64,000 nt of DNA from Escherichia coli (GTDB lineage: Bacteria > Pseudomonadota > Gammaproteobacteria > Enterobacterales > Enterobacteriaceae): assembly GCF_044324875.1 (NCBI RefSeq), contig NZ_CP172185.1. One strand, given 5' to 3'. The notes under the pieces are model-generated. The model was not told where the DNA came from and ran no database searches. It worked only from the letters and a program-made list of their open reading frames with translations. Of this stretch, positions 9,343 to 44,432 are shown piece by piece. How positions within the stretch are numbered: the stretch's first letter is position 1; each line of letters begins with the position of its first letter. The translations under genes were made by a program, and so were the position numbers.

Positions 9343-10810
9343 GTCCAATACCCTGGTGAAATTTGTGGTACCTGCTGTGGTACTGGCGGGGCTGGTGATC
9401 ACGATGAAAAGCTGCAGCACACCGGAGAGCGGGAGTGAGAGTACAGCACAGAGCGGTGCGCTGGCCGGATTATCGTCAGAAGAGCTGCGTGCGCTGGGCG
9501 TGGAAGGGGACACGCCGGAGGATACCCTGCGGACCCTGGTTGCCCGCCTGAACCAGGTCAGGGATAACCAGAAAACGCTGGAGAGCCAGAATGCGCAGTT
9601 GCTGAAGGACAACGAACAACTGCGTCGCCGGGGGACGGATGTGTCCGGCCAGGTCAGTGAAGCCGTGGCGGGAATGCAGAAAACCTACGATCAGAAGCAG
9701 CGTGAACTGCAGGAGCAGCAGCGCTCCCTGATGTCGCAGATTGATGTGCTGCGGGGGCAACTGAGTGACCAGCTGACGGGAAGTCACACGAAGCTCAGCG
9801 ATATTCCTGACGGGCTGGGACTGGATTCAGGCAGTGGTTCCGGGTCGTTGATCTCGCAGGGGGCGGACGGGCTGATGTGGGTGAGTCCGGCCGATCAGTC
9901 ACAGGATGATCCGCTGAGCAGCGGCGGAAAGAGCGGTCCGCGTTTTCCGACCTCCTTCCTTGAAGATAACCCCCTGACCCGGCAGAAAGCAGCCTATGAG
10001 CAGCAGGTGAAGGGGTACAGCAATGAGCAGCAGGCGGCCACCACGCAGGCCGTGTACACCCTGCCGGAGAACTCAACCCTGACGGGCAGCCGTGCCATGA
10101 CGGCCCTGCTGGGCAGGGTGCCGGTAAACGGCACGGTGACCGATCCGTATCCGTTCAAGATCCTCGTGGGGCGCGATAACCTCACGGCAAACGGCATTGA
10201 ACTGCCGGATGTGGAGGGGGCTGTGGTGTCAGGGACGGCCAGCGGTGACTGGACGCTTTCCTGTGTGCGCGGACAGGTGAACAGCATCACCTTTGTGTTT
10301 GCTGACGGCACGGTACGCACGCTGCCACAGGCGGATGTGAACGGTACCACCAACAGCAATCAGCAGGCGAAAAACGGGAATAACGCAGGCGGGATTGGCT
10401 GGATTTCGGATGAGGATGGGATCCCGTGTATCAGCGGCACCCGTAAATCCAATGCGTCAACCTACCTGCCGACGATATTCGGGCTGGCCGCAGCCGGCGC
10501 GGCAGGGGATGCCCTGAGTGAGGGGCAGTACACCTCGCAGAACAATGTCAACGGTATAACCTCGACGCTGACCGGCAGTGCCGGTGAAGCGGCGCTGGGT
10601 AAGGCCCTTTCCGGCGGGATGAATGAGACCGCGGACTGGGTAAGACAGCGTTACGGGCAGACCTTTGATGCCATTTATGTGCCGCCGGGAAAAACGCTGG
10701 CCGTTCACATTACCCGTCAGCTGGCGATTGATTATGAAGAGCGTGGACGTCGTGTGCGTTATGACTTCACCCTGCCGGGAGAAGCGGGCGACCGGGGCGG
10801 CCTTGACTGA
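9332..10810 (+). CDS. ICE mating-pair formation protein (VirB10/TraB-like candidate)
   Basis: N-terminal TM anchor, coiled-coil region, Gly/Ser-rich linker, C-terminal domain. Confidence 0.5.
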   Translation: MQIKSNTLVKFVVPAVVLAGLVITMKSCSTPESGSESTAQSGALAGLSSEELRALGVEGDTPEDTLRTLVARLNQVRDNQKTLESQNAQLLKDNEQLRRRGTDVSGQVSEAVAGMQKTYDQKQRELQEQQRSLMSQIDVLRGQLSDQLTGSHTKLSDIPDGLGLDSGSGSGSLISQGADGLMWVSPADQSQDDPLSSGGKSGPRFPTSFLEDNPLTRQKAAYEQQVKGYSNEQQAATTQAVYTLPENSTLTGSRAMTALLGRVPVNGTVTDPYPFKILVGRDNLTANGIELPDVEGAVVSGTASGDWTLSCVRGQVNSITFVFADGTVRTLPQADVNGTTNSNQQAKNGNNAGGIGWISDEDGIPCISGTRKSNASTYLPTIFGLAAAGAAGDALSEGQYTSQNNVNGITSTLTGSAGEAALGKALSGGMNETADWVRQRYGQTFDAIYVPPGKTLAVHITRQLAIDYEERGRRVRYDFTLPGEAGDRGGLD

Positions 10811-14081: not shown

Positions 14082-14464
14082 TGTGTCTGAAATACCCGAA
14101 ACCGGAGGTGATGACAGAGGTCATGCCCGGGGGCAGCGTGTTTTTTCTGCCGCCGCAGGGAAAACCGGGTGTTGCGGATCTGGCGCAACCGCATCTGCAG
14201 CGCCTGCGGTCACAGCTTGAACGCAGGCTGGGTACGCTGCATCGTGTGGTGTGTCAGCCCCAGCGGGTGGGGCAGAGCAGCAGTGTGGCCGTGACAGCAG
14301 AAGGGGCGTGTGGCGAGGTGCATCTTCTGCTGACAGTAGGGGGGCATGAGAGCTGGCCCTCTGAAGAGGAATACCGGCATCCGCGCTGGTATATCCAGGT
14401 GGTGGATGCGGCCGATCTGTTCTACCTGCTGCTCTGGCTGTGTGATGGCGGGCAGGAAGCGTGA
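14078..14464 (+). CDS. ICE hypothetical protein; last 62 bp duplicated downstream of iha
   Basis: start overlaps traC stop; C-terminus VVDAADLFYLLLWLCDGGQEA repeated at 16806-16870. Confidence 0.4.
   Translation: MMCLKYPKPEVMTEVMPGGSVFFLPPQGKPGVADLAQPHLQRLRSQLERRLGTLHRVVCQPQRVGQSSSVAVTAEGACGEVHLLLTVGGHESWPSEEEYRHPRWYIQVVDAADLFYLLLWLCDGGQEA
14399..14460. repeat. direct repeat copy 1 (62 bp) flanking iha insertion
   Basis: 59/62 nt identical to 16806-16867. Confidence 0.8.
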
Positions 14465-14553
14465 AGTAAAAATACTTCCACTGGCAAACTGCTCCAGTGG
14501 AAGTGTATGTAATGTTTTGTTGTTTATTTTAATTTCTTGTAAAACACAAACAC

Positions 14554-14619: not shown

Positions 14620-16707
14620 ATGCGAATAACCACTCTGGCTTCAGTAGCCATCCCTTGTCTCGGATTTTCAGTCAGCAGCATGGCTGCGGAAGATGTGATG
14701 ATAGTCACCGCATCCGGCTATGAAAAAAAATTAACCAGTGCAGCTGCGAGTGTTTCGGTGATCAGTCAGGAGGACTTGCGATCCAGCCAGTATCATGATC
14801 TTGGGGAGGCACTGAGATCCGTAGAGGGGGTGGATGTTGAAAGCGGTACGGGTAAAACCGGTGGACTGGAAATCAGCATCCGTGGAATGCCTGCCAGTTA
14901 TACGCTGATACTGATTGATGGTGTCCGTCAGGGCGGGAGCAGAGACGTAACCCCGAACGGTTTTTCTGCCATGAACACGGGGTTTATGCCACCTCTGGCC
15001 GCCATCGAACGTATTGAGATTATCAGGGGCCCCATGTCCACTCTGTACGGCTCTGATGCCATGGGGGGCGTGGTGAATATCATCACCAAAAAGAATGCAG
15101 ACAAATGGCATTCTTCAGTTAATGCCGGGCTGAACCTGCAGGAAAGTAACAAATGGGGGAACAGCAGCCAGTTTAATTTCTGGAGCAGCGGCCCCCTGGT
15201 GGATAATTCTCTCAGCCTGCAGGTACGTGGCAGCACGCAGCAGCGACAGGGCTCATCGGTCACATCACTGAGCGGCACCTCAGCCACGCGCATCCCTTAT
15301 CCAACAGAGTCACAGAATTATAATGCAGGTGCTCGTCTTGACTGGAAAGCAACGGACAAGGATATGTTCTGGCTTGATATGGATACTGCACGACAGCGTT
15401 ATGATAACCGGGACGGCCAGCTGGGCAGCCTTACTGGCGGTTATGATCGTACCCTGCGCTATGAACGTAATAAAATTTCGGCAGGTTATGATCATGCATT
15501 CACCTTCGGAACCTGGAAGTCATCCCTGAACTGGAATGAGACGGAAAATAAAGGCCGTCAGCTTGTACGCAGCGTACTGAAGCGTGATAAATGGGGACTT
15601 GCCGGCCAGCCGAGGGAGCTTAAGGAGTCGAATTTTATCCTGAATTCCTTACTGCTTGCACCTGTGGGTGAATCTCACCTGGTTACTGTCGGTGGTGAGT
15701 ACCAGAACTCATCCATGAAAGACGGGGTTGTTCTCACCAGTACAGGCGAAACCTTCCGGCAGAAAAGCTGGTCGGCATTTGTTGAGGATGAGTGGCATAT
15801 CACGGATGCGGTTGCACTGACTGTGGGCAGTCGTTATGAACATCATGAGGTGTTCGGAGGACACCTCAGTCCGCGGGCATATATGGTCTGGGATGTGGCT
15901 GATGAGTGGACGCTGAAAGGTGGGGTGACCACGGGATATAAGGCACCCGGCATGGGGCAGTTACATAAGGGGATCAGCGGTGTGTCCGGTCAGGGGCGTA
16001 CGAATCTTCTCGGTAACCCGGACCTGAAGCCGGAGGAGAGTGTCAGCTATGAAGCGGGCGTGTATTACGATAATCATGCCGGTCTGAACGCCAATATCAC
16101 GGGCTTTATGACAGAGTTCTCCAACAAGATCGTATCTTATTCTATTGATGATAATACCCGCAGCTATACAAACAGCGGAAAGGCCAGGACTCAGGGTGTG
16201 GAGTTTGCCGGCACACTGCCTCTGTGGTCAGAGGATGTGACGCTGTCTCTGAATTATACCTGGACGCAGAGTGAACAACGGGATGGGGATAATAAAGGTG
16301 CACCACTGAGTTACACCCCTGAGCATATGGTGAATGCGAAACTGAACTGGCAGATTACTGAAGATGTGTCATCATGGCTGGGTGCCCGTTACCGCGGGAA
16401 AACGCCACGTTTCACCCAGAATTATTCGTCACTCTCAGCTGTACAGAAGAAAGTGTATGATGAGAAAGGTGAATATCTGAAAGCCTGGACGGTACTGGAT
16501 GCGGGCATGTCGTGGAAAGTGACGGATGCACTGACGCTGAATGCAGCGGTGAATAATGTGCTTAACAAGGATTACAGTGACGTAAGTCTGTATCGTGCCG
16601 GCAGTGGTACGCTTTATGCGGGTGATTACTTCCAGACGGGGGCATCGACAACAGGTTATGTGATACCGGAGAGAAATTACTGGATGTCGCTGAGCTATCA
16701 GTTCTGA
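14620..16707 (+). CDS. iha: TonB-dependent outer-membrane siderophore receptor/adhesin, Iha/IrgA-like
   Basis: 695 aa; signal peptide; TonB box EDVMIVTAS; plug motif IEIIRGPMSTLYGSDAMGGVVNIITKK; C-terminal YQF; N-terminus matches recalled Iha sequence. Confidence 0.75.
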   Translation: MRITTLASVAIPCLGFSVSSMAAEDVMIVTASGYEKKLTSAAASVSVISQEDLRSSQYHDLGEALRSVEGVDVESGTGKTGGLEISIRGMPASYTLILIDGVRQGGSRDVTPNGFSAMNTGFMPPLAAIERIEIIRGPMSTLYGSDAMGGVVNIITKKNADKWHSSVNAGLNLQESNKWGNSSQFNFWSSGPLVDNSLSLQVRGSTQQRQGSSVTSLSGTSATRIPYPTESQNYNAGARLDWKATDKDMFWLDMDTARQRYDNRDGQLGSLTGGYDRTLRYERNKISAGYDHAFTFGTWKSSLNWNETENKGRQLVRSVLKRDKWGLAGQPRELKESNFILNSLLLAPVGESHLVTVGGEYQNSSMKDGVVLTSTGETFRQKSWSAFVEDEWHITDAVALTVGSRYEHHEVFGGHLSPRAYMVWDVADEWTLKGGVTTGYKAPGMGQLHKGISGVSGQGRTNLLGNPDLKPEESVSYEAGVYYDNHAGLNANITGFMTEFSNKIVSYSIDDNTRSYTNSGKARTQGVEFAGTLPLWSEDVTLSLNYTWTQSEQRDGDNKGAPLSYTPEHMVNAKLNWQITEDVSSWLGARYRGKTPRFTQNYSSLSAVQKKVYDEKGEYLKAWTVLDAGMSWKVTDALTLNAAVNNVLNKDYSDVSLYRAGSGTLYAGDYFQTGASTTGYVIPERNYWMSLSYQF

Positions 16708-16805
16708 TAACAACAAAACCGATATAACGCACAGTAAAATGTAAACATGCTGCTGCTGTCACTGCAGGCAGTGGCAGCAGCGTATAACCGCAGATGTTTG
16801 TCCAT

Positions 16806-16867
16806 GTGGTGGATGCGGTCGATCTGTTCTGTCTGCTGCTCTGGCTGTGTGATGGCGGGCAGGAAGC
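16806..16867. repeat. direct repeat copy 2 (62 bp) flanking iha insertion
   Basis: re-encodes VVDAVDLFCLLLWLCDGGQEA plus stop. Confidence 0.8.
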
Positions 16868-17144
16868 CTGAAAAAACTGCCGCTACTGGCAACTGTGTCG
16901 TGGTGGCATGTTACTGGCAGGTGGTTTACGGAGTATGGGCCCAATTCTGGCCTGCCGGAACATGCCCTTATAACCTTTAACACAGCGGTTACATAAAAAA
17001 CAATGTCTTTTGTGCACAGCAGTATTGTGGCTGAAAGTGAAATAAAAGCGCGATATTATACTGCTTCGCGTCCGGTTGTCATTATCATGGATAGTGCGTT
17101 ATGTTTATAAAGGCGTGACGGACGCTTAATTCTCACGCAACGCA

Positions 17145-23047: not shown

Positions 23048-23270
23048 TGAGCACATCACGGGCAAGCCCTTATGGCTAAAGGAGAGGGAGATTGCCCGTG
23101 GCGGCCCACTTTTTTAATCATTTTTTTACCATGTTGTCCAGTATTTTTACATAAGTGAAACATCTGGTGTTGTTTTCTGTTCATCGTGCTGGAAGTTACA
23201 GGGCTTGTAATTGAACGGGGAGAGATGTAATTTACGTGCGCAAAAATTTTACTCAAGGGGGAGAAAACCG

Positions 23271-23534
23271 ATGAAACCGAATATCCATCCTGAATACCGT
23301 ACTGTGGTGTTCCACGATACCAGTATCGATGAGTACTATAAAATTGGTTCGACCATCAAGACTGAACGTGTGATTGAGCTTGATGGTGTCACCTATCCGT
23401 ACGTAACTATTGACGTTTCCTCTAAGTCGCATCCTTTCTACACCGGCAAACTGAGAACTGTTGCTTCAGAAGGTAACGTGGCGCGCTTTAACCAGCGTTT
23501 CGGGCGTTTTGTTGACACCAAAAAAGGTGCCTGA
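23271..23534 (+). CDS. rpmE2: 50S ribosomal protein L31 type B (zinc-independent paralog)
   Basis: 87 aa [18 protein letters not shown]... lacking the Cys zinc motif; near-identical to recalled YkgM. Confidence 0.8.
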
Positions 23535-23575
23535 CCAGAAATTGATCACAGGCGCGCTTGATACGCAAAAGTATT
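23468..23575. repeat. direct repeat copy 1 (about 108 bp; 3' end of rpmE2 plus downstream)
   Basis: about 90 percent identical to 26863-26970. Confidence 0.75.
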
Positions 23576-23640
23576 ATTTGTATTATTTCTGATATTTTAT
23601 TTCAAAGGCGGTATTTACCGCCTTAATTAGTTTTATCCGT

Positions 23641-24813
23641 TTATTTATTTCCTTTTGAACGATTATGCGTAACGCAAAGCATTTCGCAATTATCAGGCTT
23701 ACTTTCACCCCCCTTACTCCATGCGGAAACATGGTCGGCTTCCATTTCTTTCAAAGCCCAGATTTTTGTTTTATTGGCATTATCTGAACTGGCGCAAAGG
23801 GGGCAGTTTGAAATACCTTGTTGCTCCGCTTTATCTGTTTGCCTTTTGTAGGCTTGTTTTTTAATTTTTTCATCAAAAAAGCGAATGTTTAATAAACGTT
23901 TATCAGATTGACCACCTAACACATATTCCCAGATGCCTTTAATGTTTTTTACACTATCATCCTGATATAATTTATTGATTTGCGTGGCTAATTCACCTGG
24001 ATTGTATGGTTTGTCTTTATAGGTTTCGTATAAACGCCCCCATTCCAGTCCGCACATTTCTTTTTTTACCTCGGTAAATGTGGTGTTAACCCAGTCAATC
24101 ACGCTATTGAAATAGGTTTTTAATTCCTTGATATTGTCATCATTACGATGGGCATTCATGTATTCGCTGATATTTCCTTTACTGACCCAGTTTAACGCAC
24201 ATTCTAAAATTTCCTGGCGTTTAACATTACCTTTGATGTAAGCACTCCATTTTTGCACATTTGAATTAGCAGAATTACTGAATTCTGCTTTTGCCAGTGT
24301 AACAAATTTGCCCGAATACACCGCATTCAATAATTCTTGTTCATTTAAAGGGACGCCAGTAATATTAATCGTTTTAAACCATTCTTTAATTTCGCTTTCT
24401 GTACCCTTACATTTGTAAATCAGCAAAGTGGTTTGTTTGATTTTCTCTTGTTGGTCTTGCGGTAAACTATGGAAATAGTATGGCGTGCCTTTATCATCTA
24501 TAATGGCGAATTTTCCGGTAACAAACCGCCCAATACTGGTAATGCGCTGCTGACCATCCAGTACTTCAAATGTATCTTCTGTATCTTTGTCAGGTTGATT
24601 AAAATAAATCAAACCGAGCGGATAACCTTTTAATACTGACTGGATAACTGCCACATCTTTCTTACCGTCTGCATAAATATAATTGCGTTGATATTCGGGC
24701 TGAATGGTAAGCTTTCCTGATAAACCAAACAAGCCTTTTCCCTCCAGTTCATTATAAACAAATCCATCGCACAATTGTTCAACGGTGATTGATGTATCTA
24801 ATTGTGTTTTCAT
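23641..24813 (-). CDS. DUF262 (ParB-like, DGQQR) plus C-terminal HNH nuclease
   Basis: motifs QPEYQR and DGQQR near N-terminus; HNH-like HVSAWSKGG...[10 protein letters not shown] at C-terminus; 15 bp after methyltransferase stop. Confidence 0.6.
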
Positions 24814-24828
24814 TTTTCACTTTTCCTT

Positions 24829-25983
24829 TTATTTATTTTGTGGATTGATGTGTTTAATAAGAATGCGTCCATAAGTACGTTTGCCGTTAATAACTGTACA
24901 CCCACCCCTATCTTCAGAATGTTGAGAATAATTTAAAATCTCCAGTATCTCTTCGGGAGTTGATGCTCGTGTATTACCACTTGCTTGCCAAATAATTTCA
25001 AACTGTTCAGGACAATATTTATCCAAAAAGCTAATTGGCACGCCCATAACTCCTGCATAATCGCTAGGAATACCGTTAGTTCTGGGCACTTCAATAGCAT
25101 CATAATTGTCATATGCCTGATAAGCGTTAGGGTCATTGATAATTTGTTTGTTGTATTTTAAATTATCCGCCATAGACATTAGCTGTAAAGATTGATGCCG
25201 TCTGCCGTGTTCAATATTGGTAAACCAACAAGAGTTACCCAAACGAGTATAATCACCTATATATCCTAGACGCTCCGCTTTTTTCTTATCAGCTTCCCTC
25301 ACATCAGCACCTTGTGGTACAGCAAAAACCATATCATTACCATTCCCAGTAGCACCCAACCAAATTTTATTTCCTTTGATAAGTGGAAAAATCTCTTTAT
25401 AAGTAATAGCATTCATATTACCGATAACGGCAAACTGCTTTTTACCTTCCATAATCCATGCCATAAATTCGCGAAACAGCGAAAAAGGCGGATTGGTGAT
25501 AATTATGTCGCTTTCATCGCGTAGAGCTTTGATTTCATCACTACGAAAATCGCCATCACCCTGCAGGTATTGCCATTTAATATCTTTAAAATCAATTACA
25601 CCATCGTGATTACTGTCTTCGGTTAGCGTGTAAATTTTGCCATGTTTCTGGCTTTTATCACTGTCGTATTGTTCACTTTCGCTTTCAAATAATGATGGCT
25701 GATAAGCTGTGTTTAACTGTTTGGATTGATGAGCGTAGCTGGTACTGATGAGCTTCTTTAATCCAAGTCGTTCAAAGTTTTGTGCAAAATAAAGTGTGAA
25801 ATTGCTCCACTCGGGGTCATCACATGGTAAGAGAATGGTTTTGCCACGAAATACGTCTTTATTGAAATCAAGATAGGCATTCATCTCTTTTTCAATATCA
25901 TGGTATTGGGTGTAAAATTCGTCATTTTTGGCTTTTTTTGCAGCAGAAAGATTACTGTTTTTGGCAGAAATATTCTTTGACAT
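24829..25983 (-). CDS. N6-adenine DNA methyltransferase (NPPF motif)
   Basis: catalytic motif IITNPPF; GGAGG RBS 7 nt upstream. Confidence 0.6.
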   Translation of the reverse strand: MSKNISAKNSNLSAAKKAKNDEFYTQYHDIEKEMNAYLDFNKDVFRGKTILLPCDDPEWSNFTLYFAQNFERLGLKKLISTSYAHQSKQLNTAYQPSLFESESEQYDSDKSQKHGKIYTLTEDSNHDGVIDFKDIKWQYLQGDGDFRSDEIKALRDESDIIITNPPFSLFREFMAWIMEGKKQFAVIGNMNAITYKEIFPLIKGNKIWLGATGNGNDMVFAVPQGADVREADKKKAERLGYIGDYTRLGNSCWFTNIEHGRRHQSLQLMSMADNLKYNKQIINDPNAYQAYDNYDAIEVPRTNGIPSDYAGVMGVPISFLDKYCPEQFEIIWQASGNTRASTPEEILEILNYSQHSEDRGGCTVINGKRTYGRILIKHINPQNK

Positions 25984-26033
25984 TTCAAACCTCCAAAACA
26001 GTATTGAAGGTTTGAAAAAACGGGGTTACATTA

Positions 26034-26152
26034 TGCTTGTTGCTTGTTGCTTGTTGCTTGTTGCTTGTTGCTTGTTGCTTGTTGCTTGTTGCTTGTTGCT
26101 TGTTGCTTGTTGCTTGTTGCTTGTTGCTTGTTGCTTGTTGCTTGTTGCTTGT
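26034..26152. repeat. heptanucleotide microsatellite (TGCTTGT)x17
   Basis: 17 perfect tandem units, 119 bp, beginning 50 bp upstream of the methyltransferase ATG. Confidence 0.9.
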
Positions 26153-26211
26153 ATTAGCATTGGATTTTCCCTTTTACTTGTCAAGTATTTTCTTTTGGAT
26201 TCTGAAGTTTT

Positions 26212-26538
26212 TCACGTATTCGTAACGATGGCATCAAGTGCAGCGATAATTTCATTTCTGGATGAAGAAATATTACATATAAAATCTTTGCTGTTTATTT
26301 TTTTTGCATCCAGGAACGTGAGCGCCGGGGTGAACACATAGAAATCCGATGTCTCTATTTTAACTAATGGCGTTATCCTTTTCTTTTTAAGCTCAATATC
26401 ATTTTTTGATACCAGAGGCACGACTATCCTTGTGGTTAAATCGTCAAAATAATCATTCTGGAGAATAAGGTAGAACGGCCAGAGTTTATTCGTTCTGACC
26501 GATGGATTGCGGTATACATCAAATTGCTTTGGCATCAC
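26212..26538 (-). CDS. CcdB-like toxin candidate
   Basis: 108 aa; QFDVYRN...FYLILQNDYF...PL pattern resembles CcdB; 4-nt overlap with upstream antitoxin-like ORF. Confidence 0.4.
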   Translation of the reverse strand: MMPKQFDVYRNPSVRTNKLWPFYLILQNDYFDDLTTRIVVPLVSKNDIELKKKRITPLVKIETSDFYVFTPALTFLDAKKINSKDFICNISSSRNEIIAALDAIVTNT

Positions 26539-26783
26539 AGACTCCCAAAGAAATCGTCATCCGTCAACATTCCTGCTTTTGCCATAAATTTATTCATAGT
26601 GTGCATATCCTGTTTTTCTTCTTCCCGCTCTACAGTTTTGGCCTCGATAGCCTGTGCCAGAAGGTTATCCAGTGTTGCCGACAGGTTCATGTCCATACTC
26701 CGGGCTTTATCAACCAGTGAGGCCGTCAGGTAAACGTTGGTGCTTCTTTTGTTGCTGTTACGAGTGGTGGCAACTGTATTCAT
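26535..26783 (-). CDS. CcdA-like antitoxin candidate
   Basis: 82 aa from ATG 26783 (AGGAG RBS); table ORF 26535-26879 trimmed. Confidence 0.4.
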   Translation of the reverse strand: MNTVATTRNSNKRSTNVYLTASLVDKARSMDMNLSATLDNLLAQAIEAKTVEREEEKQDMHTMNKFMAKAGMLTDDDFFGSL

Positions 26784-26862
26784 TATGCTTGCTCCTGTGC
26801 GCAGATGTATGCGCATAATTATGATGGGGGAAGGATAAACAATCAAGTGTGATCCTTCCGTT

Positions 26863-26970
26863 AGAAGGTAATGTGGCATGCTTTAACCAGCGTTTCGGGT
26901 GTTTTGTTGACACCAAAAAAGGTGCCTGATCAGAAATCGATCACAGGCGCTATTGATATGCAAAAGTATT
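26863..26970. repeat. direct repeat copy 2 (about 108 bp)
   Basis: re-encodes ...[21 protein letters not shown] plus stop and downstream flank. Confidence 0.75.
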
Positions 26971-27053
26971 GCTTGAGTGTCTGAGGTCGGTTATTTTATG
27001 TTTCACAAGTAAAGAAGCATTTAAAAAGAAACTCACAGTCCATATTCCTTCAT

Positions 27054-27077
27054 CCCCGGTTACGGGGATTTTTTTTA
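27054..27077 (+). terminator. rho-independent terminator
   Basis: CCCCG GTTA CGGGG hairpin followed by T8; downstream of repeat copy 2. Confidence 0.45.
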
Positions 27078-27190
27078 GCTGCTGTCTGGTGAGGAGGAAA
27101 GGGGCTGTGTCGGGCAGGGCGCTGTAAGGCTGCGATTGTCCGGGTGATGTCTGAACATGCGGTATGTTTGTGTTAAACAAGGGGGGAGTA

Positions 27191-27378
27191 TGTGGATACT
27201 GATTTTCTGGCTTTCAACACCATATTCAGTGTCATCCAGCGTTGCCAGACAACCAACGCTTGCTGTTCATTCTCAGGAGTTCGCCAGCGAAAGGGCCTGC
27301 AGGAATGCGCTGGCTGAGATGAAGAAGGTGAATGTCGGAGAACTGACCCTGAGGGGTATCTGTGTCTCAAAAGAATAG
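27191..27378 (+). CDS. small exported protein, hypothetical
   Basis: G-rich RBS; signal-like N-terminus; 62 aa. Confidence 0.3.
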
Positions 27379-28121
27379 TGGGGGAGAGGGAGCGAACCAG
27401 GCAGTTTTATCAGGAATGTGATTCCGGCGAACCCGCTCGCCGCAGTCCGGCGACCGAACGTCAGTGAGTAAGCGGACGAGGAAGCGGAATGTCACCGTTC
27501 TTTCATAATGCACGAACGCTGTGTGGTTACATGGGGAAAGGATGAATGTCACCATTCTGTATCTGTTTCTGAAAAACAGTTCCGCTTGTTACCCTGTAAT
27601 TGCCGACTGGCGTTAGCATACAGAGGCGGTATTATCCCCTGTGATATCAGGGGTTATTTTGTTTTGCTCTGTAAGACCTGGCCAGCTATTATGCTGGCCT
27701 TTTTGTGGTTTATTGTTCGCAGTCCAGCATTGCAAATAATTTTCGTTTCTGTTCCTTCACATACTCAACATCAACAGTACAATCCAGATAACTTAACTCA
27801 TCTTCTGTCCAGGCATTGATGGATTCTTTTATTCGGTGTGTCACATCAGGTGTGAGTATGTCGCGCATTTCTCAATGGTATCCCGGCTTATTTCTCCTCG
27901 TGGAGATTCAAGCAGAGGAATTACGGCCTGATCTCCCGGAGGGAGTATAAGACGTAATTCATATTTAAGCGTTTCGTTGAGTAAACTACAGAAAGCACTG
28001 TATTTCTCTTTCCGGGTACTGTTCATCGTTTTATTCCTTCTAATTACTGTGCATGGGGTAAGATTAAAGTGTTTTGCAAAAAATGTACAAGTTGTTTTTA
28101 TCCTGATTTAATTTGATGTCA

Positions 28122-28802
28122 TCACTTTTCTTTTGTGTCAGTGGGTACTGCATTGTTTATTAGCCACGGCAATTGTTGATTATCCTGTATTTTTCGGATG
28201 TAGTTATCAATAATATCTTTTGTTTCATCAATATTATTATAAAAAGATTCAAGTGTGCATATAAAATCATCATTTAATGTAGGTAGCAGGATTATGTTTT
28301 TTACTGTGAACCGGATATGACGATTACTCAGTGTTTTTAAATAAAGTTTCTTTCCAATAACAGGATTTACATTGAAAATATTGTAACAGATTTCCACTGT
28401 GTTTTCTGAAGGTGCGTATAATACGTATACCGGATATTTTTTATGAAGTTTTATCAAGCAACTTATAAAATCTAAGTAATTTGTTTGTTTTGCTTTTTCT
28501 CGCATCTTATTTACGTGCTGCGAAAAGAAATATGCTTTTGTAAATATAAAAAGAAAAATAAACGCAGTGTTTAACAGAAATGTGATGACAATTGTTGTAA
28601 ATAACCATTTGCCTGAACCTGTATTAAAAATATGGGATGAAAGATACCCACCTGTCAGCAACAAAAATATAAATAATAATGACTGCATTTTTTCCTGGTT
28701 GTTTATTGATGATTTCAGACACAGAAATATAACAACACATGAAAAGGTCCAGAAAAATATAACAGCAAAATCCATATTATCACCTTTTGTCTGACAGTTC
28801 AT
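28122..28802 (-). CDS. polytopic membrane protein, hypothetical
   Basis: 226 aa, several hydrophobic helices, strongly AT-rich. Confidence 0.4.
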   Translation of the reverse strand: MNCQTKGDNMDFAVIFFWTFSCVVIFLCLKSSINNQEKMQSLLFIFLLLTGGYLSSHIFNTGSGKWLFTTIVITFLLNTAFIFLFIFTKAYFFSQHVNKMREKAKQTNYLDFISCLIKLHKKYPVYVLYAPSENTVEICYNIFNVNPVIGKKLYLKTLSNRHIRFTVKNIILLPTLNDDFICTLESFYNNIDETKDIIDNYIRKIQDNQQLPWLINNAVPTDTKEK

Positions 28803-28944
28803 TTGTTGATGCTATCACGATATTCGCGATGCGGTAAATATATCAATATGTTGGTTTATTTGTGTAATACATTATTTCCCATACGCCATAAATCAGTCTG
28901 TTGACGATAGCTTTTTTCTTTTGTTATTCTGTACCCGCTTTAAC

Positions 28945-29187
28945 TGTCGCTTCGGCGACCACCAATGTTCCATGAGGCCTGTGAGGAACGCCTTCGGGTG
29001 GCCCACGTCGCTCCGGCGACCACCAATGCTCCATCTGACCTGTGAGGAGCGCCTTCGGGTGGTCAGTTTTACACCTCCGTAGCCTGAAAGGAGCTGTGCG
29101 TGCTGATGGGATATGTTCCCGGAAGTACGGGTAAATCTGCACACCTTTGCGAGCAGATGTCACCACGGTTTACGTGATGATGAAGGC
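28945..29187. repeat. 244-bp direct repeat copy A with internal 48-bp tandem sub-repeat
   Basis: about 95 percent identical to 31740-31983. Confidence 0.8.
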
Positions 29188-29921
29188 ATTCCGGATTTCG
29201 TCCGGTACTTTTACTTTTTCTCAGCAGACTTTCATAAAAATGCTTTATGGATCTGCTTCTTAAGATGTTTTCTGGCTTTCCGCATAAGCTTCTTATGACT
29301 GTGCGCACGGCATAAGGCCATTTGAAATTTGGCCGCTTGCGTGTGTACGTGGATTTTGAAGCCTTGCGGCGTCACTTGAGTGCGACCGTAGGGAACACCA
29401 AGTGACGCCACAACAATCTGCCCTGAAAGCAGCATCACGTAAGGCCAGCCAGAAAATCGTCGCTCGTGACCAGCGTTCTGATGACCGTTTCGTCTGTCTG
29501 ACAGCGTCTTTCAGTAACGTGTCCATGCCTTTCCGGCGCGTCCGTTTTCACGGACGGCCACGCCGGAATGTCTTTTTAAACTTCATAATACATGAGAGGT
29601 AAGTGTATTAACTTGTTGAAAAAAGGAATAAATATGAAAAATCGTTCTGAAGTCGGAAGGCGTCATCGTAAGATGACGGGGAGTAAAAAATCGCCCTGGT
29701 GCACAGGTAGCGAACTCCTGTAAAAACTCAACATGTGCAAGCTCTGCTACATCGACATCAAACGAGCCAGGAAGGCGAGCAACCGCGTTACAGAGCCGTC
29801 CGTGATGACGAAAAACTAACAATATCAACGATCTGGTCTGTTTATCGGAAGGGCATCTCATGCAGTTGAACTTTCAGAACGGATGGTTTTCTGCATCTTT
29901 TTTAACAGGGGGATTGACGTT

Positions 29922-30839
29922 ATGTCCCGTAAATCGTCACGTTCCAAAGTTGAAGTCTTTCGCAAGTCATTCATCTCACTTGCCCGTGATTGTGGTGGCA
30001 GCTACGCAACAACCGCTGACAGAATGCGAATTGCCAGATACTTTTTGAATTATTTGCAAGTAAACGGTATCAAACTTCGTCAGACGGGCAGTATTAAGAC
30101 GAGGCATATTTCTGGTTATCTTCTCAGCAGGAAAGAGCAGGGGATCTCTCACCGCACAATTCAGAATGAACGGGCAGTTATGCGCGCAATTCTAGAGAAA
30201 GATGGTCGCCTTAAAATAGCGGATCCGTCCAATCCTTTATTGAGCAATGAAGCTCTTGGACTCAGGGATACATGCCGTGATGGTAAAAAGATACCACTCT
30301 CACAGGATGAGTTTAATAAAGCCTTCAGTAAGGTTGAAAAAAATAATCCCGGTGTTGCTGCAGTAATGCAAATTTCTTATGTTCTTGGACTGAGGACAAA
30401 AGAAGCTGTTCAGTCTTGTAAATCAGTTAACTCGTGGCTACGTGAACTTGATTCAGGGCATGATTCTCTTCTCGTTGTTTTTGGGACGAAAGGTGGAAGG
30501 CCCAGAGATACAACGATCATTAATCGTGATGCAGTGAAACATGCGCTCATTTATGCAAAAAACATTATGGATAAACAGAATGGTAAACTTATCGATTGCC
30601 CCAATATTAAACAGGCTATAAACGTATATCGTTACCATGTAAGAAAAGCTGGTTTATCTGGAGTGAAGGCACCACATAGTATGCGTTATCATTTTTCGCA
30701 GGAAGCAAGGCAGTTTTATCGAAAAAGTGGATATGGAGATAAAGAAATTTACGCAAGGGTTTCCATGGACCTTGGTCATGGTGACGGAAGAGGGCGTTAT
30801 GTAAAACAGGTCTACTTTAAAGGCGATGATGAGAGCTGA
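29922..30839 (+). CDS. tyrosine-recombinase-like protein (integrase family)
   Basis: C-terminal HSMRYHFS...LGHGDGRGRY resembles Box II HxLRH...LGH...Y; AGGGGG RBS. Confidence 0.45.
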   Translation: MSRKSSRSKVEVFRKSFISLARDCGGSYATTADRMRIARYFLNYLQVNGIKLRQTGSIKTRHISGYLLSRKEQGISHRTIQNERAVMRAILEKDGRLKIADPSNPLLSNEALGLRDTCRDGKKIPLSQDEFNKAFSKVEKNNPGVAAVMQISYVLGLRTKEAVQSCKSVNSWLRELDSGHDSLLVVFGTKGGRPRDTTIINRDAVKHALIYAKNIMDKQNGKLIDCPNIKQAINVYRYHVRKAGLSGVKAPHSMRYHFSQEARQFYRKSGYGDKEIYARVSMDLGHGDGRGRYVKQVYFKGDDES

Positions 30840-30842
30840 TAT

Positions 30843-31583
30843 TTAAAATGAATCCGGAGGATATGTGTTTTTCGCGAACTTATTAATTTCTGTAATAAGA
30901 ATTTCTGATGCACGATTACACATGCTCTCATTAAAGTATCCTATATGGCATTCATGGATGCGGCAATTTAGTTTTCTGGATAGCCATCTGTTTGCCTCGT
31001 TACGGGATATATTTGTTTTTTGCTGATAGCTGTCAAAAAGTTTACGCACTTGTGCTCTGAGTATTCTCAAATTTTCTTTAGCTGGAGTACCTAATGGTCT
31101 CCCTGAATTTTTATGACATCCAACCCATGCATTGCATGGGCTGCAAATCCAGTAATATTTGTTTTCTGTAGTGGGTGTCGTGGAAAATGGCATAAGTGCA
31201 CCTTTTCTGAGTTGTGCCTTATTACCACAGTAAGTGCAGATTACAATTGGACGAACATCTGCAATATTCAGTGCTGCATAAGTAAGACGTTCATTTTTCA
31301 TCATGTTTCGTTTTCCACAGTCAGTGAGAATATGCTTTATTGTGTCTAATTCTTCTCGGAGTATTTTTGAACGGACGCCAGTTCGATAACGCTGTTGAAA
31401 GTAGAGCTCAATATGGCGTAGTTTTATACTATTTATTGATTTTATCTGTATATTGGATTCTTTAAGAAATGAAGCAAATCTTCTGGCTCTCCCCATATAT
31501 ACCAGTATGTCTTCTGGTGTCGGGGCGCATGCTTTAGCTATTTTGATTAGCTCATCTTTTAATTTTTTGTATTTCGATTTCAT
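30843..31583 (-). CDS. integrase-N-terminal-like domain plus Cys-rich zinc-ribbon protein
   Basis: CTYCGN...CSPCNAWVGCH and CRIHECH clusters; convergent with 29922-30839. Confidence 0.4.
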   Translation of the reverse strand: MKSKYKKLKDELIKIAKACAPTPEDILVYMGRARRFASFLKESNIQIKSINSIKLRHIELYFQQRYRTGVRSKILREELDTIKHILTDCGKRNMMKNERLTYAALNIADVRPIVICTYCGNKAQLRKGALMPFSTTPTTENKYYWICSPCNAWVGCHKNSGRPLGTPAKENLRILRAQVRKLFDSYQQKTNISRNEANRWLSRKLNCRIHECHIGYFNESMCNRASEILITEINKFAKNTYPPDSF

Positions 31584-31739: not shown

Positions 31740-31983
31740 TGTCGCTTCGGCGACCACCAATGTTCCATGTGGCCTGTGAGGAACGCCTTCGGGTGGCCCA
31801 CGTCGCTCCGGCGACCACCAATGCTTCATCTGACCTGTGAGGAGCGCCTTCGGGTGGTCAGTTTTACACCTCCTGAGCCTGAAAGGAGCTGTGCGTGCTG
31901 AAGGGATATGTTCCCGGAAGTACGGGCAAATCTGCGCACCTTTGAGAGCAGATGTCACTGCGGTTTTCCGTGATGATGAAGGC
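31740..31983. repeat. 244-bp direct repeat copy B
   Basis: pairs with 28945-29187. Confidence 0.8.
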
Positions 31984-33331: not shown

Positions 33332-33884
33332 CTGTCTTTGTTCATGGCTTTTCAACAGACCGTTATGCTTTCGCCACCACATGGTAAGGCGGGTCTGATT
33401 TTACTGTTAACCGTACGGTTCACTCTCATACCGTACGGTGGGAGTGAACCCTTTTCATTAAGGACACTCTCATGAAAACGAAAACTTCTGCACCTGCTGT
33501 ATATGTTGGTACCTGGGCTAAATACAACAATGGCAGCATAGAAGGATGCTGGTTTAATGATTTAACCGTTTTTGAAACTGAAAGCGATTTTTTATCTGCG
33601 GCCCGTAAGTTTCATCAGGATGAAAAAGATCCTGAATTTATGTACCAGGATTATGAAAACTTTCCTTCGGGAATGGCTTCAGTGCAAAATGGCATCTGAA
33701 TCGATCGCAGTTTGGCATTCGAATCGATCATGATTTGGCATCCATCTCCGATCACAGTTTGGCATCACAATCGATCACGATTTGGCATGCTTCCGATCAT
33801 TGATTGGCATCCTGCCAGTCACTCCGGGAATTAACTCTTTTCACCACAGTCTCCATTGCCGTGTTTAAACCAGTGGAGACGTCA

Positions 33885-42186: not shown

Positions 42187-44223
42187 TTAGTTTCTTACCA
42201 CCAAATCTAAATCAATAGATTTTTTATTAGCATAACTTTTTAGTGCTTCATTGAGTTCCATCTGTTTCGCACTTTCGAAGTTGCTGCCATAAAATACAAC
42301 TTTGTTAGGGGCAAAGTCTTTGTCTGCATCCAGCTTTTGAAGTAAAGCTTTCAAAGCCTCACTTGTGAAATTAGGCGCAATTAGATATAGCCGACCATCG
42401 CACAAGTGTGCTTTGTAGCCATTAAGGTCAATATCTTCAATTGGTGTTGTTAGCAAGCTGCCATCATACACGCACCATGTCGTCAATAGAGTGTCATACT
42501 GCTCTGGTGTCAATACAGCATCGTCAAAGAAACTAAGATTAGAAAGCGTAAGTTCAGACTCATCTTTCACTCGAAAATTATGAACTGTTTCAAATATTTT
42601 AAATCCCAAATCTCCATTATAATTAGGATTATCTTTTTTCAGCTTTTTTCCTGCCTTAATAATTCTGTCTTTTGTTATATTGAAGATGGATTTATACCCT
42701 TCTTTATAGGCTTGTTTCTTTTTATCTGTTTCTTCATCTAATTGAACACAGATGAAGTTTCTTTTCCTGCCGTCTTCAATATTTAACTCCAGAATACCAT
42801 GAGCTGTAGTTCCAGAGCCAGCAAAAAAGTCAAGATAAATGTCTTTATCTTCGGTTTTTACTGAACCAAATAGTGTTTTTATTAAACTTGTTGGCTTCGG
42901 GTAGGAGAAATATCCTTTCCCACCAAAAAGATTTTCAACCTCAACACCACCATCACTTTTAGTTGAAATAATTGATCTTAGTAAAAACTCTTCAACTTCA
43001 TCTAAAAATTTAACCGAACTGGGTTGGGTGTTTTCTGTACTGGCAAACCAAATTCCACCACAAATAACGCTACCATCATGTAGTTTTTTGATATCTGCAT
43101 ACTTTCCATCTATTCTTTTTGCAATATGATTAAAAGTGCCTTCTTTCCAACGCCAGCCTCTGTCTGGGATTTTGACAGGGTTATTAGTCAAAGGGTGCAA
43201 TACTTCATACGTGGGTCCAAATGAATCTGCATTAGGCCAGCTCATATTAATTTTACCCCATGGCCTATAATCTTCGTTCAAACAGTTGTAAAGAGTAATT
43301 CCACGATCATATCCGTTGGAGCTGTAGAATTTTTTGAGTTGCTGCTCTGCTTTATCTAATGGCACCTTCTCCTTTTTTAACTTTTCAATAAACTGATATA
43401 CATCATCAATACCATCTTTCCGCATTAAAAATTCTTTACTTATTTCGTTATTCTTCGCATAAGCAAGGATGTACTCATGGATATTACCAATACCCTTATC
43501 ATTTTTAGGGATACGTTTATTCCATACAATATTTTCTATGAAATTTGCTTCGCCAAAAATTTCATCACAAATAGTTTTAAGTTGATTTAATTCATTTTCG
43601 TCAATCGAAATAAATATCACACCATCTTCACGTAGAAGCTCACGAGCAATATATAAACGAGGATAAATGAACGTTAACCATGCGCTATGGCTGCTTGAAC
43701 CATTCGTGGTAAATTCAAGTATACGTTTAGCCTCATCAAGATCGATACCTGCCAGATCAGAAAGCTGTTCAGGTGTAAACTTGCGATCATCGTTATAGGC
43801 GAATCCATCCTTACCTGTATTGTATGGTGGATCAATGTAAATCATCTTCACCTTTTCAGAGTAAGCATTAACCATATGCTTCAATACTTCGAGGTTATCC
43901 CCTTTGATTAACAGATTCTGACTGTTTTTGTTCTCTTCACGTTGGTTATGGTCTTTATCTTCGGAGAGTAATGTCTTCGGCGGCAAGTTAGCTAACAGAC
44001 GGGCATAGGATTTACCAAGCCAGTTCAGGCTGTATGATTCTTTGGAGAGTTCAACATCCGATGATTTGACGATTTCAAGCAATTTTTCCTGAATGAACGC
44101 TCCATTTTTATCAAAACACTGTGGAAAGTTAGCCTTTAAAATCGCAAGCTGTTTACTGTTTGTGGTTTCAGTTTCAGAGAAAAGAGTTTCTTTTTTCAGT
44201 TGAAATTGGGGTTGTGTATTCAT
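42187..44223 (-). CDS. mod: Type III restriction-modification methyltransferase, Mod subunit
   Basis: 678 aa; DPPY motif (IYIDPPYNTG); AdoMet motif FFAGSGTT; GGAGG RBS. Confidence 0.8.
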   Translation of the reverse strand: MNTQPQFQLKKETLFSETETTNSKQLAILKANFPQCFDKNGAFIQEKLLEIVKSSDVELSKESYSLNWLGKSYARLLANLPPKTLLSEDKDHNQREENKNSQNLLIKGDNLEVLKHMVNAYSEKVKMIYIDPPYNTGKDGFAYNDDRKFTPEQLSDLAGIDLDEAKRILEFTTNGSSSHSAWLTFIYPRLYIARELLREDGVIFISIDENELNQLKTICDEIFGEANFIENIVWNKRIPKNDKGIGNIHEYILAYAKNNEISKEFLMRKDGIDDVYQFIEKLKKEKVPLDKAEQQLKKFYSSNGYDRGITLYNCLNEDYRPWGKINMSWPNADSFGPTYEVLHPLTNNPVKIPDRGWRWKEGTFNHIAKRIDGKYADIKKLHDGSVICGGIWFASTENTQPSSVKFLDEVEEFLLRSIISTKSDGGVEVENLFGGKGYFSYPKPTSLIKTLFGSVKTEDKDIYLDFFAGSGTTAHGILELNIEDGRKRNFICVQLDEETDKKKQAYKEGYKSIFNITKDRIIKAGKKLKKDNPNYNGDLGFKIFETVHNFRVKDESELTLSNLSFFDDAVLTPEQYDTLLTTWCVYDGSLLTTPIEDIDLNGYKAHLCDGRLYLIAPNFTSEALKALLQKLDADKDFAPNKVVFYGSNFESAKQMELNEALKSYANKKSIDLDLVVRN

Positions 44224-44432
44224 AACGCACCTCCAGAATGCACGGAGGTACTTGACGCGGAATTTTTATACAGGCATATTGTTGCGTTGCGTTGCGTTGC
44301 GTTGCGTTGCGTTGCGTTGCGTTTCGTTGCGTTGCGTTGCGTTGCGTTGCGTTGCGTTGCGTTGCGTTGCGTTGCGTTGCGTTGCGTTGCGTTGCGTTGC
44401 GTTGCGTTGCGTTGCGTTGCGTTGCGTTTCAT
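44220..44432 (-). CDS. repeat-encoded leader ORF (QRNAT)n overlapping mod start
   Basis: ATG at 44432 followed by the 5-mer tract; TGA overlaps mod ATG as ATGA. Confidence 0.35.
   Translation of the reverse strand: MKRNATQRNATQRNATQRNATQRNATQRNATQRNATKRNATQRNATQRNATICLYKNSASSTSVHSGGAL
44281..44425. repeat. pentanucleotide microsatellite (GTTGC)x29; GCAAC on mod strand
   Basis: 29 tandem units with one GTTTC variant. Confidence 0.9.

Follow-up and report, generated by a model that had tools for sequence, protein, structure and literature searches.

A recombinase-less restriction-modification cassette at the 3' end of rpmE2 in an Escherichia coli integrative conjugative element, and its probable homology-dependent insertion

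Here we describe a cassette of four genes inserted downstream of rpmE2, the gene for the type B 50S ribosomal protein L31, in an integrative conjugative element (ICE) of Escherichia coli. The analysis covered a 64-kb stretch of DNA (contig NZ_CP172185.1; hereafter the window, with positions counted from its first nucleotide). The cassette encodes a putative restriction-modification (R-M) pair and a CcdAB-like toxin-antitoxin pair, and it is bounded by two imperfect copies of the rpmE2 3' end. We consider the probable explanation for this structure to be that a cassette lacking a recombinase gene, and equipped with a diverged copy of the 3' end of its target gene, was inserted in a homology-dependent manner. 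This explanation is preferred because occupied and empty sites coexist in the same ICE. It is further supported by a second cargo gene of the same ICE, iha, because iha shows the same anatomy with an unrelated exchange sequence, and by another occupied locus (L028), because the repeats there are the allele of the recipient up to the edges of the cassette.

The rpmE2 3' end, its flanking repeats and the empty site

The window is part of an ICE that is nearly identical in the chromosomes of strains CM2 and TUM1886, where the annotated transfer proteins comprise members of the TIGR03745-03758 / PFL_4xxx families together with TraD, TraG_N and TraU. The rpmE2 gene (23271-23534, plus strand) is a backbone landmark of this ICE family and is also found in ICEs of Shiga toxin-producing E. 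coli (STEC) and in the decayed element SpLE1 of O157 strain Sakai. As judged from its open reading frame and translation, it is an intact gene encoding a protein of 87 amino acids (Pfam Ribosomal_L31; RefSeq WP_000803993.1 in CM2 and AR_0089), and this protein is unchanged between occupied and empty ICEs. The type B paralogue of L31 is the zinc-independent form. The ICE-borne rpmE2 gene, in the window as well as in loci L017 (7186-7449) and L018 (5804-6067), is found without its usual partner gene, ykgO.

The direct repeats, both on the plus strand, lie at positions 23468-23575 (copy 1) and 26863-26970 (copy 2) and are identical at 99 of 108 positions (91.7%), with seven transitions among the nine mismatches. 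A repeat search of the whole window returned a slightly extended pair (23461-23580 and 26856-26975; 120 nt, 88% identity). A 50-nt core of the repeat occurs exactly twice in the window and gave 0 matches in 100 shuffles. Copy 1, which is attL-like, consists of the final 67 bp of the rpmE2 coding sequence and 41 bp of downstream sequence; its left part corresponds to the resident ICE allele, whereas we ascribe the more diverged stretch beyond the stop codon to the cassette. Copy 2, which is attR-like, re-encodes the same 22 codons and the stop codon with two Arg-to-Cys changes and then continues into native downstream sequence; having no start codon, it is a gene fragment, and it is also promoterless. 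The longest block that is identical between the two copies spans 29 bp (23506-23534, plus strand; twin at 26901-26929) and has the rpmE2 stop codon at its end.

Copy 2 is followed by a rho-independent terminator (27052-27077, plus strand), the stem of which (27052-27069) precedes a T run, and the same terminator stands directly after rpmE2 in empty ICEs. A terminator-like hairpin is also present at the left end of the cassette (23605-23624, plus strand), now 70 bp past the rpmE2 stop codon and also past the stop codon of the opposite-strand nuclease gene. The original prediction, which had been made from the nucleotide sequence alone, had described repeats of 108 bp at these positions with an identity of about 90%, copy 1 as the last 67 bp of rpmE2 plus about 40 bp, copy 2 as a re-encoded C-terminus and stop codon, and the terminator behind it, and all of these features were confirmed. 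The same applies to the genes that it had placed between the copies (a nuclease, a methyltransferase, a 7-mer tract and a CcdAB-like pair), which were recovered by open reading frame and domain searches, and to its statement that the bounded segment contains no recombinase: profile searches with all four cassette genes gave no match to recombinase or transposase families.

A comparison with related genomes, as had been proposed with the original prediction, revealed an empty site, in which rpmE2 is directly followed by the terminator, in at least 24 complete E. coli genomes, in further assemblies and in two metagenome contigs. The flanks used as queries are 1604 bp apart in the empty-site genomes and 5001 bp apart when the site is occupied. 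Two complete E. coli genomes contain an occupied site. In a wider assembly collection, the exact nuclease protein was found in 1479 index blocks and the exact rpmE2 protein in 6700. At the 32 loci that were read, rpmE2 is followed either by nothing or by the same cassette, with no third state, and one genome carries occupied and empty ICE copies side by side (L022 and L023). Metagenomes of the Joint Genome Institute (JGI) contained copy 1, copy 2 and the empty form only. None of the genomes compared has the two repeats without cargo between them, the arrangement that had been named in advance as incompatible with an island. The empty sites, together with the foreign variants in copy 2 described below, support the earlier proposal that integration occurred at the 3' end of a gene and that the element supplied its own copy of that end. 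The predicted position of the island at the rpmE2 3' end therefore stands, with the qualifications that it lies inside an ICE rather than in the chromosome proper and that the rpmE2 coding sequence is uninterrupted.

The unique part of the cassette comprises 3287 bp (23576-26862). Its core (approximately 23589-26862) recurs with 96-97% identity in a related ICE of four STEC strains, where it is located between remnants of IS66 tnpB and ureB and is not associated with rpmE2 repeats. We considered whether these STEC copies are flanked by rpmE2 fragments or by other long duplications, and rejected this possibility; rpmE2 is located 6.6 kb further on. In strain SCU-171 (L003), direct repeats of approximately 270 bp with 82-87% identity (4765-5037 and 9638-10015) surround a 4.9-kb segment that contains the STEC-type cassette, and these repeats are absent from the other STEC loci examined. 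The STEC ICEs also contain other cargo right after the rpmE2 stop codon, such as hok/gef in SCU-171.

Allelic origin of the repeats and parallel insertions

All 22 of the occupied loci examined that belong to one flanking haplotype, termed W, are identical to one another in both copy 1 and copy 2, and all nine of the empty loci examined have another flanking haplotype, termed c. The identity of the copies and flanks throughout the 22 W loci indicates a single insertion event followed by spread with the ICE. To the left of rpmE2, haplotypes W and c differ by only about 0.2%, as against 3-5% from rpmE2 to approximately position 29000; a comparison with L020 over approximately 23055-29500 gave 3-5% for 2.5 kb to the right of the cassette. 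This step in divergence indicates that the W haplotype consists of a c-like backbone and a larger, diverged recombinant patch that brought the cassette.

The nine differences between the copies can be assigned by comparison with the empty allele. At the four left-hand differences, the empty allele always agrees with copy 1, and at the five right-hand differences, it agrees with copy 2 in three cases, with copy 1 in one case and with neither in one case. Copy 2 has four variants in its left part. AAT and GCA, which are synonymous, also occur in the rpmE2 alleles of ICEs from STEC and O157, and the remaining two, the Arg-to-Cys changes, are private to copy 2 and are what would be expected of a fragment freed from selection. 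The presence of AAT and GCA indicates that copy 2 begins with a fragment of a different rpmE2 allele and is not an in situ duplicate of copy 1; for the same reason, we rejected drift of an exact duplicate in situ as the main source of the differences between the copies. Judging from this allele comparison, the switch from resident to incoming sequence falls in the 29-bp identity block, that is, within the last 29 bp of the rpmE2 coding sequence, stop codon included.

In the mechanism that we propose, the cassette would have been a type II-like R-M pair with a hypervariable 7-mer leader tract and a ccdAB pair, and it would have carried an rpmE2 3' end of approximately 108 bp, about 10% diverged, from another ICE lineage. 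The resident rpmE2 3' end would have served as the partner in homology-dependent recombination, which would have placed the cassette between the rpmE2 stop-codon region and the terminator; a circular or gapped intermediate may have entered by a Campbell-type single exchange, or an equivalent event of copy-choice or gene conversion between ICEs may have had this result. The exchange would have occurred in the 29-bp block, which is the sole identity block long enough for RecA-type recombination, and its product would be an intact rpmE2 on the left and a decaying fragment on the right. Of this scheme, the insertion polymorphism, the foreign left part of copy 2, the exchange position, the lack of a recombinase gene and the spread of one insertion with the ICE are shown by the comparisons, and a circular or gapped intermediate and the participating enzymes are inferred. 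After insertion, cells that lose the cassette would be penalised by the R-M pair as well as by ccdAB (post-segregational killing), which may explain the stability of the cassette.

A parallel case was found in the same ICE by the whole-window repeat search. The gene iha (14620-16707) is bracketed by 77-nt direct repeats with 91% identity: the first copy (14389-14465, plus strand) comprises the terminal 77 bp, stop codon included, of a backbone gene of 128 amino acids that precedes iha, and the second (16796-16872, plus strand) follows iha. In locus L026 (approximately 440-640), which is without iha, a single hybrid is present: its left side is identical to copy 1 and everything beginning with the stop codon to copy 2, with the switch within an identity block of 35 bp. 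The hybrid in this empty site is clean because the flanks there are of the same haplotype. The exchange regions of rpmE2 and iha have no sequence in common, the iha cargo is not an R-M unit, and again no recombinase gene is present.

Locus L028 (GCA_027275365.1, JAPXDV010000001.1; 7198-7330 and 10552-10690) contains the same cassette in the second haplotype. It shows no substitution relative to the cassette of the window and differs from it only in three homopolymer indels and in a 7-mer tract of 10 copies. Its flanks are of haplotype c across 23055-28747, with a backbone of the same type as that of the empty locus L021. Since the cassette is identical and the flanks differ by 3-5%, the cassette appears to be a recent arrival in this haplotype. 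Both repeats of L028 are of the c allele: in copy 1, cassette sequence is confined to approximately the final 12 bp, and in copy 2 the c sequence sets in within the first 9 bp, giving the junctions CCGTTAGAAGGTAACGTGGCGCGC and GCGCGATTGATACGCAAAAGTATTATTTG. At its left end, the cassette nevertheless still has a diverged counterpart of the 12 bp that follow in the target (CGCAAAAGTATT versus TGGAAAGGTATT), which argues that the cassette carries homology with it. A single reciprocal exchange, or a site-specific exchange at a fixed core, would not produce this pattern; gap repair of a broken intermediate, resident-directed mismatch correction of heteroduplex or copy-choice would. We believe that the arrangement in L028 is probably real.

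Alternative explanations and points of conflict

Several observations weigh against homology-dependent insertion as set out above. At position 23556, to the right of the exchange point, the empty allele agrees with copy 1 and not with copy 2 (one of the five right-hand sites). An empty site with the W flanking haplotype of the window was not found in a search with a protein specific to the right flank, and L038, the one candidate for such a site, was rejected on inspection since it carries the common empty haplotype; the resident allele before insertion therefore has to be deduced from a relative with a divergence of 3-5% in its flanks and of about 9% within the repeat. The L028 evidence comes from a single long-read assembly with homopolymer errors, in which a consensus artefact is possible. 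The 29-bp identity block is also the place where the core of a site-specific reaction would equally be expected, and a protein resembling tyrosine recombinases, a candidate enzyme for such a reaction, is encoded in the ICE backbone (29883-30839; PF12834 and PF12835, 2e-51).

The predicted attP, or circular junction, would join the left part of copy 2 to the right part of copy 1 (GGGTG...GGTGCCTGACCAGAAATTG), and the matching scar would read GGGCG...GGTGCCTGATCAGAAATCG. A query with this attP against complete E. coli genomes and plasmids returned only the known occupied and empty sites, degenerate patterns for all of the forms gave no match in species-representative genomes or viral contigs, and neither attP nor a donor form was present in the JGI metagenomes, all of these being assemblies and thus a weak test for rare circles. 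Since no donor allele, circle or excision scar was found, L028 is the one sign of present-day mobility. These negative results likewise count against the proposed route.

Among the alternatives, exact duplication of the target by the R-M unit itself deserves attention first. Insertion of R-M units with long target duplication was reportedly described by Nobusato et al. in 2000. In the published cases, the repeats are 46-420 bp in length with identities mostly of 94-100%, a relative has one copy and no insert, and two of the Haemophilus cases have a repeat that overlaps a gene 3' end (PMC2853133). The release and reinfection steps of the life cycle proposed for such units are without experimental evidence (Furuta, Abe and Kobayashi 2010, PMC2853133). 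Applied to our locus, this explanation holds that double-strand breaks or widely staggered nicks led to a target of approximately 100 bp being copied on both sides, and that subsequent drift, together with flank exchange between ICE lineages, produced the 8% difference.

The resemblance is considerable, since the locus likewise consists of a small R-M unit without a mobility gene, long direct repeats and an empty relative. The operational criteria of Furuta et al. (2010) also describe it well: homologues of both R and M genes lie in the insert, the unique part (3287 bp) is shorter than 20 kb, the repeat (108 bp) is longer than 30 bp, a relative has a single copy, and the insert contains no mobility gene, though the whole structure lies inside an ICE. 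As to the derivation of both repeats from the target, L028 has two copies of the recipient allele, as this explanation expects, whereas in the window nine of 108 positions differ between the copies and copy 2 carries variants of another allele in its left part. It is on this last point that exact duplication encounters difficulty, because the variants concerned are those of another rpmE2 allele and not random drift, and because the W-haplotype occupied loci are identical to one another, leaving no visible time for a drift of 8%. The diverged target homologue retained at the left end of the cassette even in L028 indicates that homology is brought by the cassette, and the same anatomy around iha, which is not an R-M gene, makes a step specific to restriction enzymes unnecessary. 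The locus thus differs from the known insertions in its repeats, which are 91.7% identical and in one case partly of a foreign allele, in the toxin-antitoxin pair aboard, in its location inside an ICE, and in the non-R-M cargo with the same anatomy. We regard exact duplication as unlikely here.

A second alternative is site-specific integration in trans, in which the repeats would be the attL and attR of an element of the cis-mobilizable element (CIME) type, the tyrosine recombinase would be encoded elsewhere, at 29883-30839 or by the host, and the core would lie in the 29-bp block. CIMEs are non-autonomous elements that are flanked by att sites and lack their own integrase; those related to ICESt1 and ICESt3 are said to have been described by Pavlovic, Burrus, Guedon and colleagues. 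As in CIMEs and in other elements that integrate at the 3' ends of genes or tRNA genes, the target gene is intact at our locus, a displaced 3' fragment is present at the far end, and empty sites exist. An insertion at a gene 3' end that reconstitutes the gene is indeed a classic integrase signature, the exchange maps to a discrete identical block, and the integrase-like gene is present 3 kb downstream in every ICE of the family. The locus departs from these elements in that no integrase or excisionase, no short conserved core and no attP were identified. The cassette itself has no recombinase, more than 30 loci showed a single cargo type at this position, the collections searched yielded no attP form, and an extended imperfect homology of 108 bp would be unnecessary for enzymes of this class. 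One recombinase could not serve both the rpmE2 and iha sites, which have the same anatomy and unrelated exchange sequences, and the switch points of L028, a single assembly, are located at opposite ends of the repeats, which is incompatible with a fixed core. Integration in trans therefore seems quite unlikely to us, and of the two routes that the original prediction had left open, mobilisation in trans and homologous exchange, the evidence leans towards the latter.

Finally, the reversed polarity, in which the occupied state would be ancestral and the empty sites would be deletions between the repeats, was rejected as very improbable: direct repeats of 108 bp can support deletion, and recombination between the repeats of L028 would yield exactly the common empty allele, but the cassette is compositionally foreign (36-38% G+C), its nuclease has its nearest named relatives outside E. 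coli in Pasteurellaceae, Moraxella and Neisseria and its ccdAB is plasmid-like, empty ICEs are about four times as common (6700 versus 1479 index blocks), no empty site in the samples has the flanking haplotype of the window, and the cassette of L028 is identical to that of the window within flanks that are 3-5% different and is thus recent there.

Homology-dependent insertion of a cassette with its own rpmE2 3' end therefore remains our preferred explanation. A wider and more tentative suggestion is that this ICE family might gain and exchange cargo through recombinase-less, homology-anchored cassettes with decoy 3' ends of backbone genes, which would recombine into place beside the resident copy and thereby create long imperfect duplications, and that this process may be ongoing, with L028 as a second recent arrival.

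Cargo genes, other features of the ICE and significance

The G+C content of the cassette is 36-38%, compared with 58-60% in the transfer genes a few kilobases upstream. All four of its genes are on the minus strand. The first (23641-24813) encodes a nuclease of 390 amino acids with a GmrSD_N (DUF262) domain and a C-terminal HNH domain (PF03235, 3e-21; PF01844, 3e-6), which matches the PADLOC REase_II model over its full length (3e-86). The second (24829-25983) encodes an EcoRI-family N6-adenine DNA methyltransferase of 384 amino acids (PF13651, 2e-131; PADLOC MTase_II, 7e-96). The GmrSD_N domain is typical also of modification-dependent (type IV) enzymes, so the nuclease is the putative cognate restriction enzyme of the methyltransferase; sequence searches of the PDB with both proteins found no solved or characterised close relative.

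The toxin and antitoxin genes are adjacent and overlapping. The antitoxin gene (26535-26783) encodes a CcdA-family protein of 82 amino acids (PF07362), and the toxin gene (26212-26535) encodes a CcdB-family protein of 107 amino acids (PF01845). The NCBIfam CcdB equivalog model matches the latter (8e-6) below its curated cut-off (26 bits versus 147); by these profile scores, the protein is classed as a member of the CcdB family and not as an orthologue of the F-plasmid toxin. The ccdAB part of the cassette (26211-26848) has 86-89% DNA identity to ccdAB of plasmids of Klebsiella, Enterobacter and Citrobacter. Copies of the nuclease that are 100% and 96% identical are found in E. coli, the next relatives have at most 80% identity, and the named relatives outside E. 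coli are from Haemophilus felis, Mannheimia, Moraxella and Neisseria (72-76%). The methyltransferase and nuclease families are also linked in H. felis and Mannheimia haemolytica, with one extra gene between them. The kinship of the nuclease with proteins of Pasteurellaceae, Moraxella and Neisseria, together with the plasmid-like ccdAB, suggests that the cassette is itself composite.

Upstream of the methyltransferase gene, a tract of the 7-mer GCTTGTT (16 copies in the window, 26035-26146) is contained in a short leader open reading frame (26026-26160, minus strand; MLIQATSNKQ...), the stop codon of which is 42 nt before the methyltransferase ATG. The number of 7-mer copies ranges from 6 to 20 among 27 loci with otherwise nearly identical surroundings, and all three reading frames are represented. 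When the copy number leaves a remainder of 2 on division by 3, the leader frame stops 1 nt before the methyltransferase ATG; in the other cases, it stops 42-47 nt upstream. The methyltransferase gene has its own Shine-Dalgarno sequence. This arrangement suggests that the tract may switch the methyltransferase by translational coupling.

A repeat tract upstream of the methyltransferase gene seems to be a trait of the family: the M. haemolytica unit has 15 copies of AATCA approximately 60 bp upstream of the gene (L045, 1908-1984), and the H. felis unit has a TTCGG tract at a similar distance (approximately 60 bp), located at the end of a contig (L043, 1-19). Phasevarions are phase-variable R-M systems of Haemophilus, Neisseria and Helicobacter with a type III Mod enzyme. 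Our locus resembles them in that a simple-sequence tract adjacent to a methyltransferase gene varies among isolates (6-20 copies), and differs from them in that the tract lies in an upstream leader frame, outside the methyltransferase gene, and that the enzyme is an EcoRI-family type II methyltransferase and not a type III Mod. A second phase-variable R-M system is likely to be present in the same ICE, as judged from a GTTGC pentanucleotide tract of approximately 30 copies (44281-44430) that lies approximately 60 bp upstream of a type III mod gene (42187-44223, minus strand). In locus L014 (GCA_030142865.1, CP126293.1; approximately 4340-4830), the 7-mer tract is fused directly to a GCAAC pentanucleotide tract, and approximately 18 kb is absent; ccdAB, the integrase-like gene, the type III system and repeat copy 2 are among the sequences concerned. 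The locus apparently underwent a deletion between two simple-sequence tracts; the junction contains an N, which may point to an assembly problem.

The integrase-like gene is itself surrounded by 227-bp direct repeats, which were considered as a third insertion of the same kind. This was rejected, because the repeats are two copies of the STAXI RNA motif (28945-29117 and 31740-31911; 85 and 83 bits), which flank the integrase-like gene (29883-30839) and a zinc-finger/DUF3268 gene (30843-31583). An EFASI motif (29642-29764) lies between them, and the segments with STAXI and EFASI motifs are the most diverged between ICE haplotypes (13-24%). Further downstream (33679-33793), in a region annotated as ardA in CM2, iteron-like units of 23 bp (AATCGATCACAGTTTGGCAT) are present. 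These units share the 12-mer AATCGATCACAG with the rpmE2-downstream sequence in copy 2 and in the empty allele, where copy 1 has AATTGATCACAG; the sharing is probably a coincidence.

The locus can also be compared with the hotspots HS1-HS5 of the SXT/R391 ICEs, which are exchanged by homologous recombination, as reportedly described by Wozniak et al. and by Garriss et al. in 2009. In both, cargo is found at a fixed border after a backbone gene, relatives have other cargo there (hok/gef in the STEC ICEs) and the haplotypes are mosaic. Exchange by flanking crossovers, however, leaves no duplication of a 3' end, which is the defining feature here, and the present ICE family is of the TIGR03745-03758 / PFL_4xxx type. 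The locus is a well-documented example of a known mode of cassette spread and not a new kind of element; beyond its value as a test case, it represents ordinary mobile-element mosaicism.

To our knowledge, R-M units in long direct repeats have been catalogued since 2000, and the insertion step has never been reproduced or explained. In E. coli, the present locus offers many empty sites, a very common occupied form and repeat halves that can be assigned to resident and incoming alleles, in addition to iha, another cargo of this ICE that shares the anatomy, and a candidate for the same cassette in a second haplotype. The dependence of insertion on RecA, on a recombinase or on a nuclease is testable here by simple genetics. 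If homology-anchored cassettes prove to be the true explanation, the locus would provide a set of donor, recipient and product for the unexplained long-target-duplication insertions in a tractable E. coli system. For the organism, the cassette means that an ICE widespread in E. coli from birds and humans gains an addiction module as well as an R-M system whose tract is hypervariable, and this combination may affect the movement of the ICE and of other DNA between strains.

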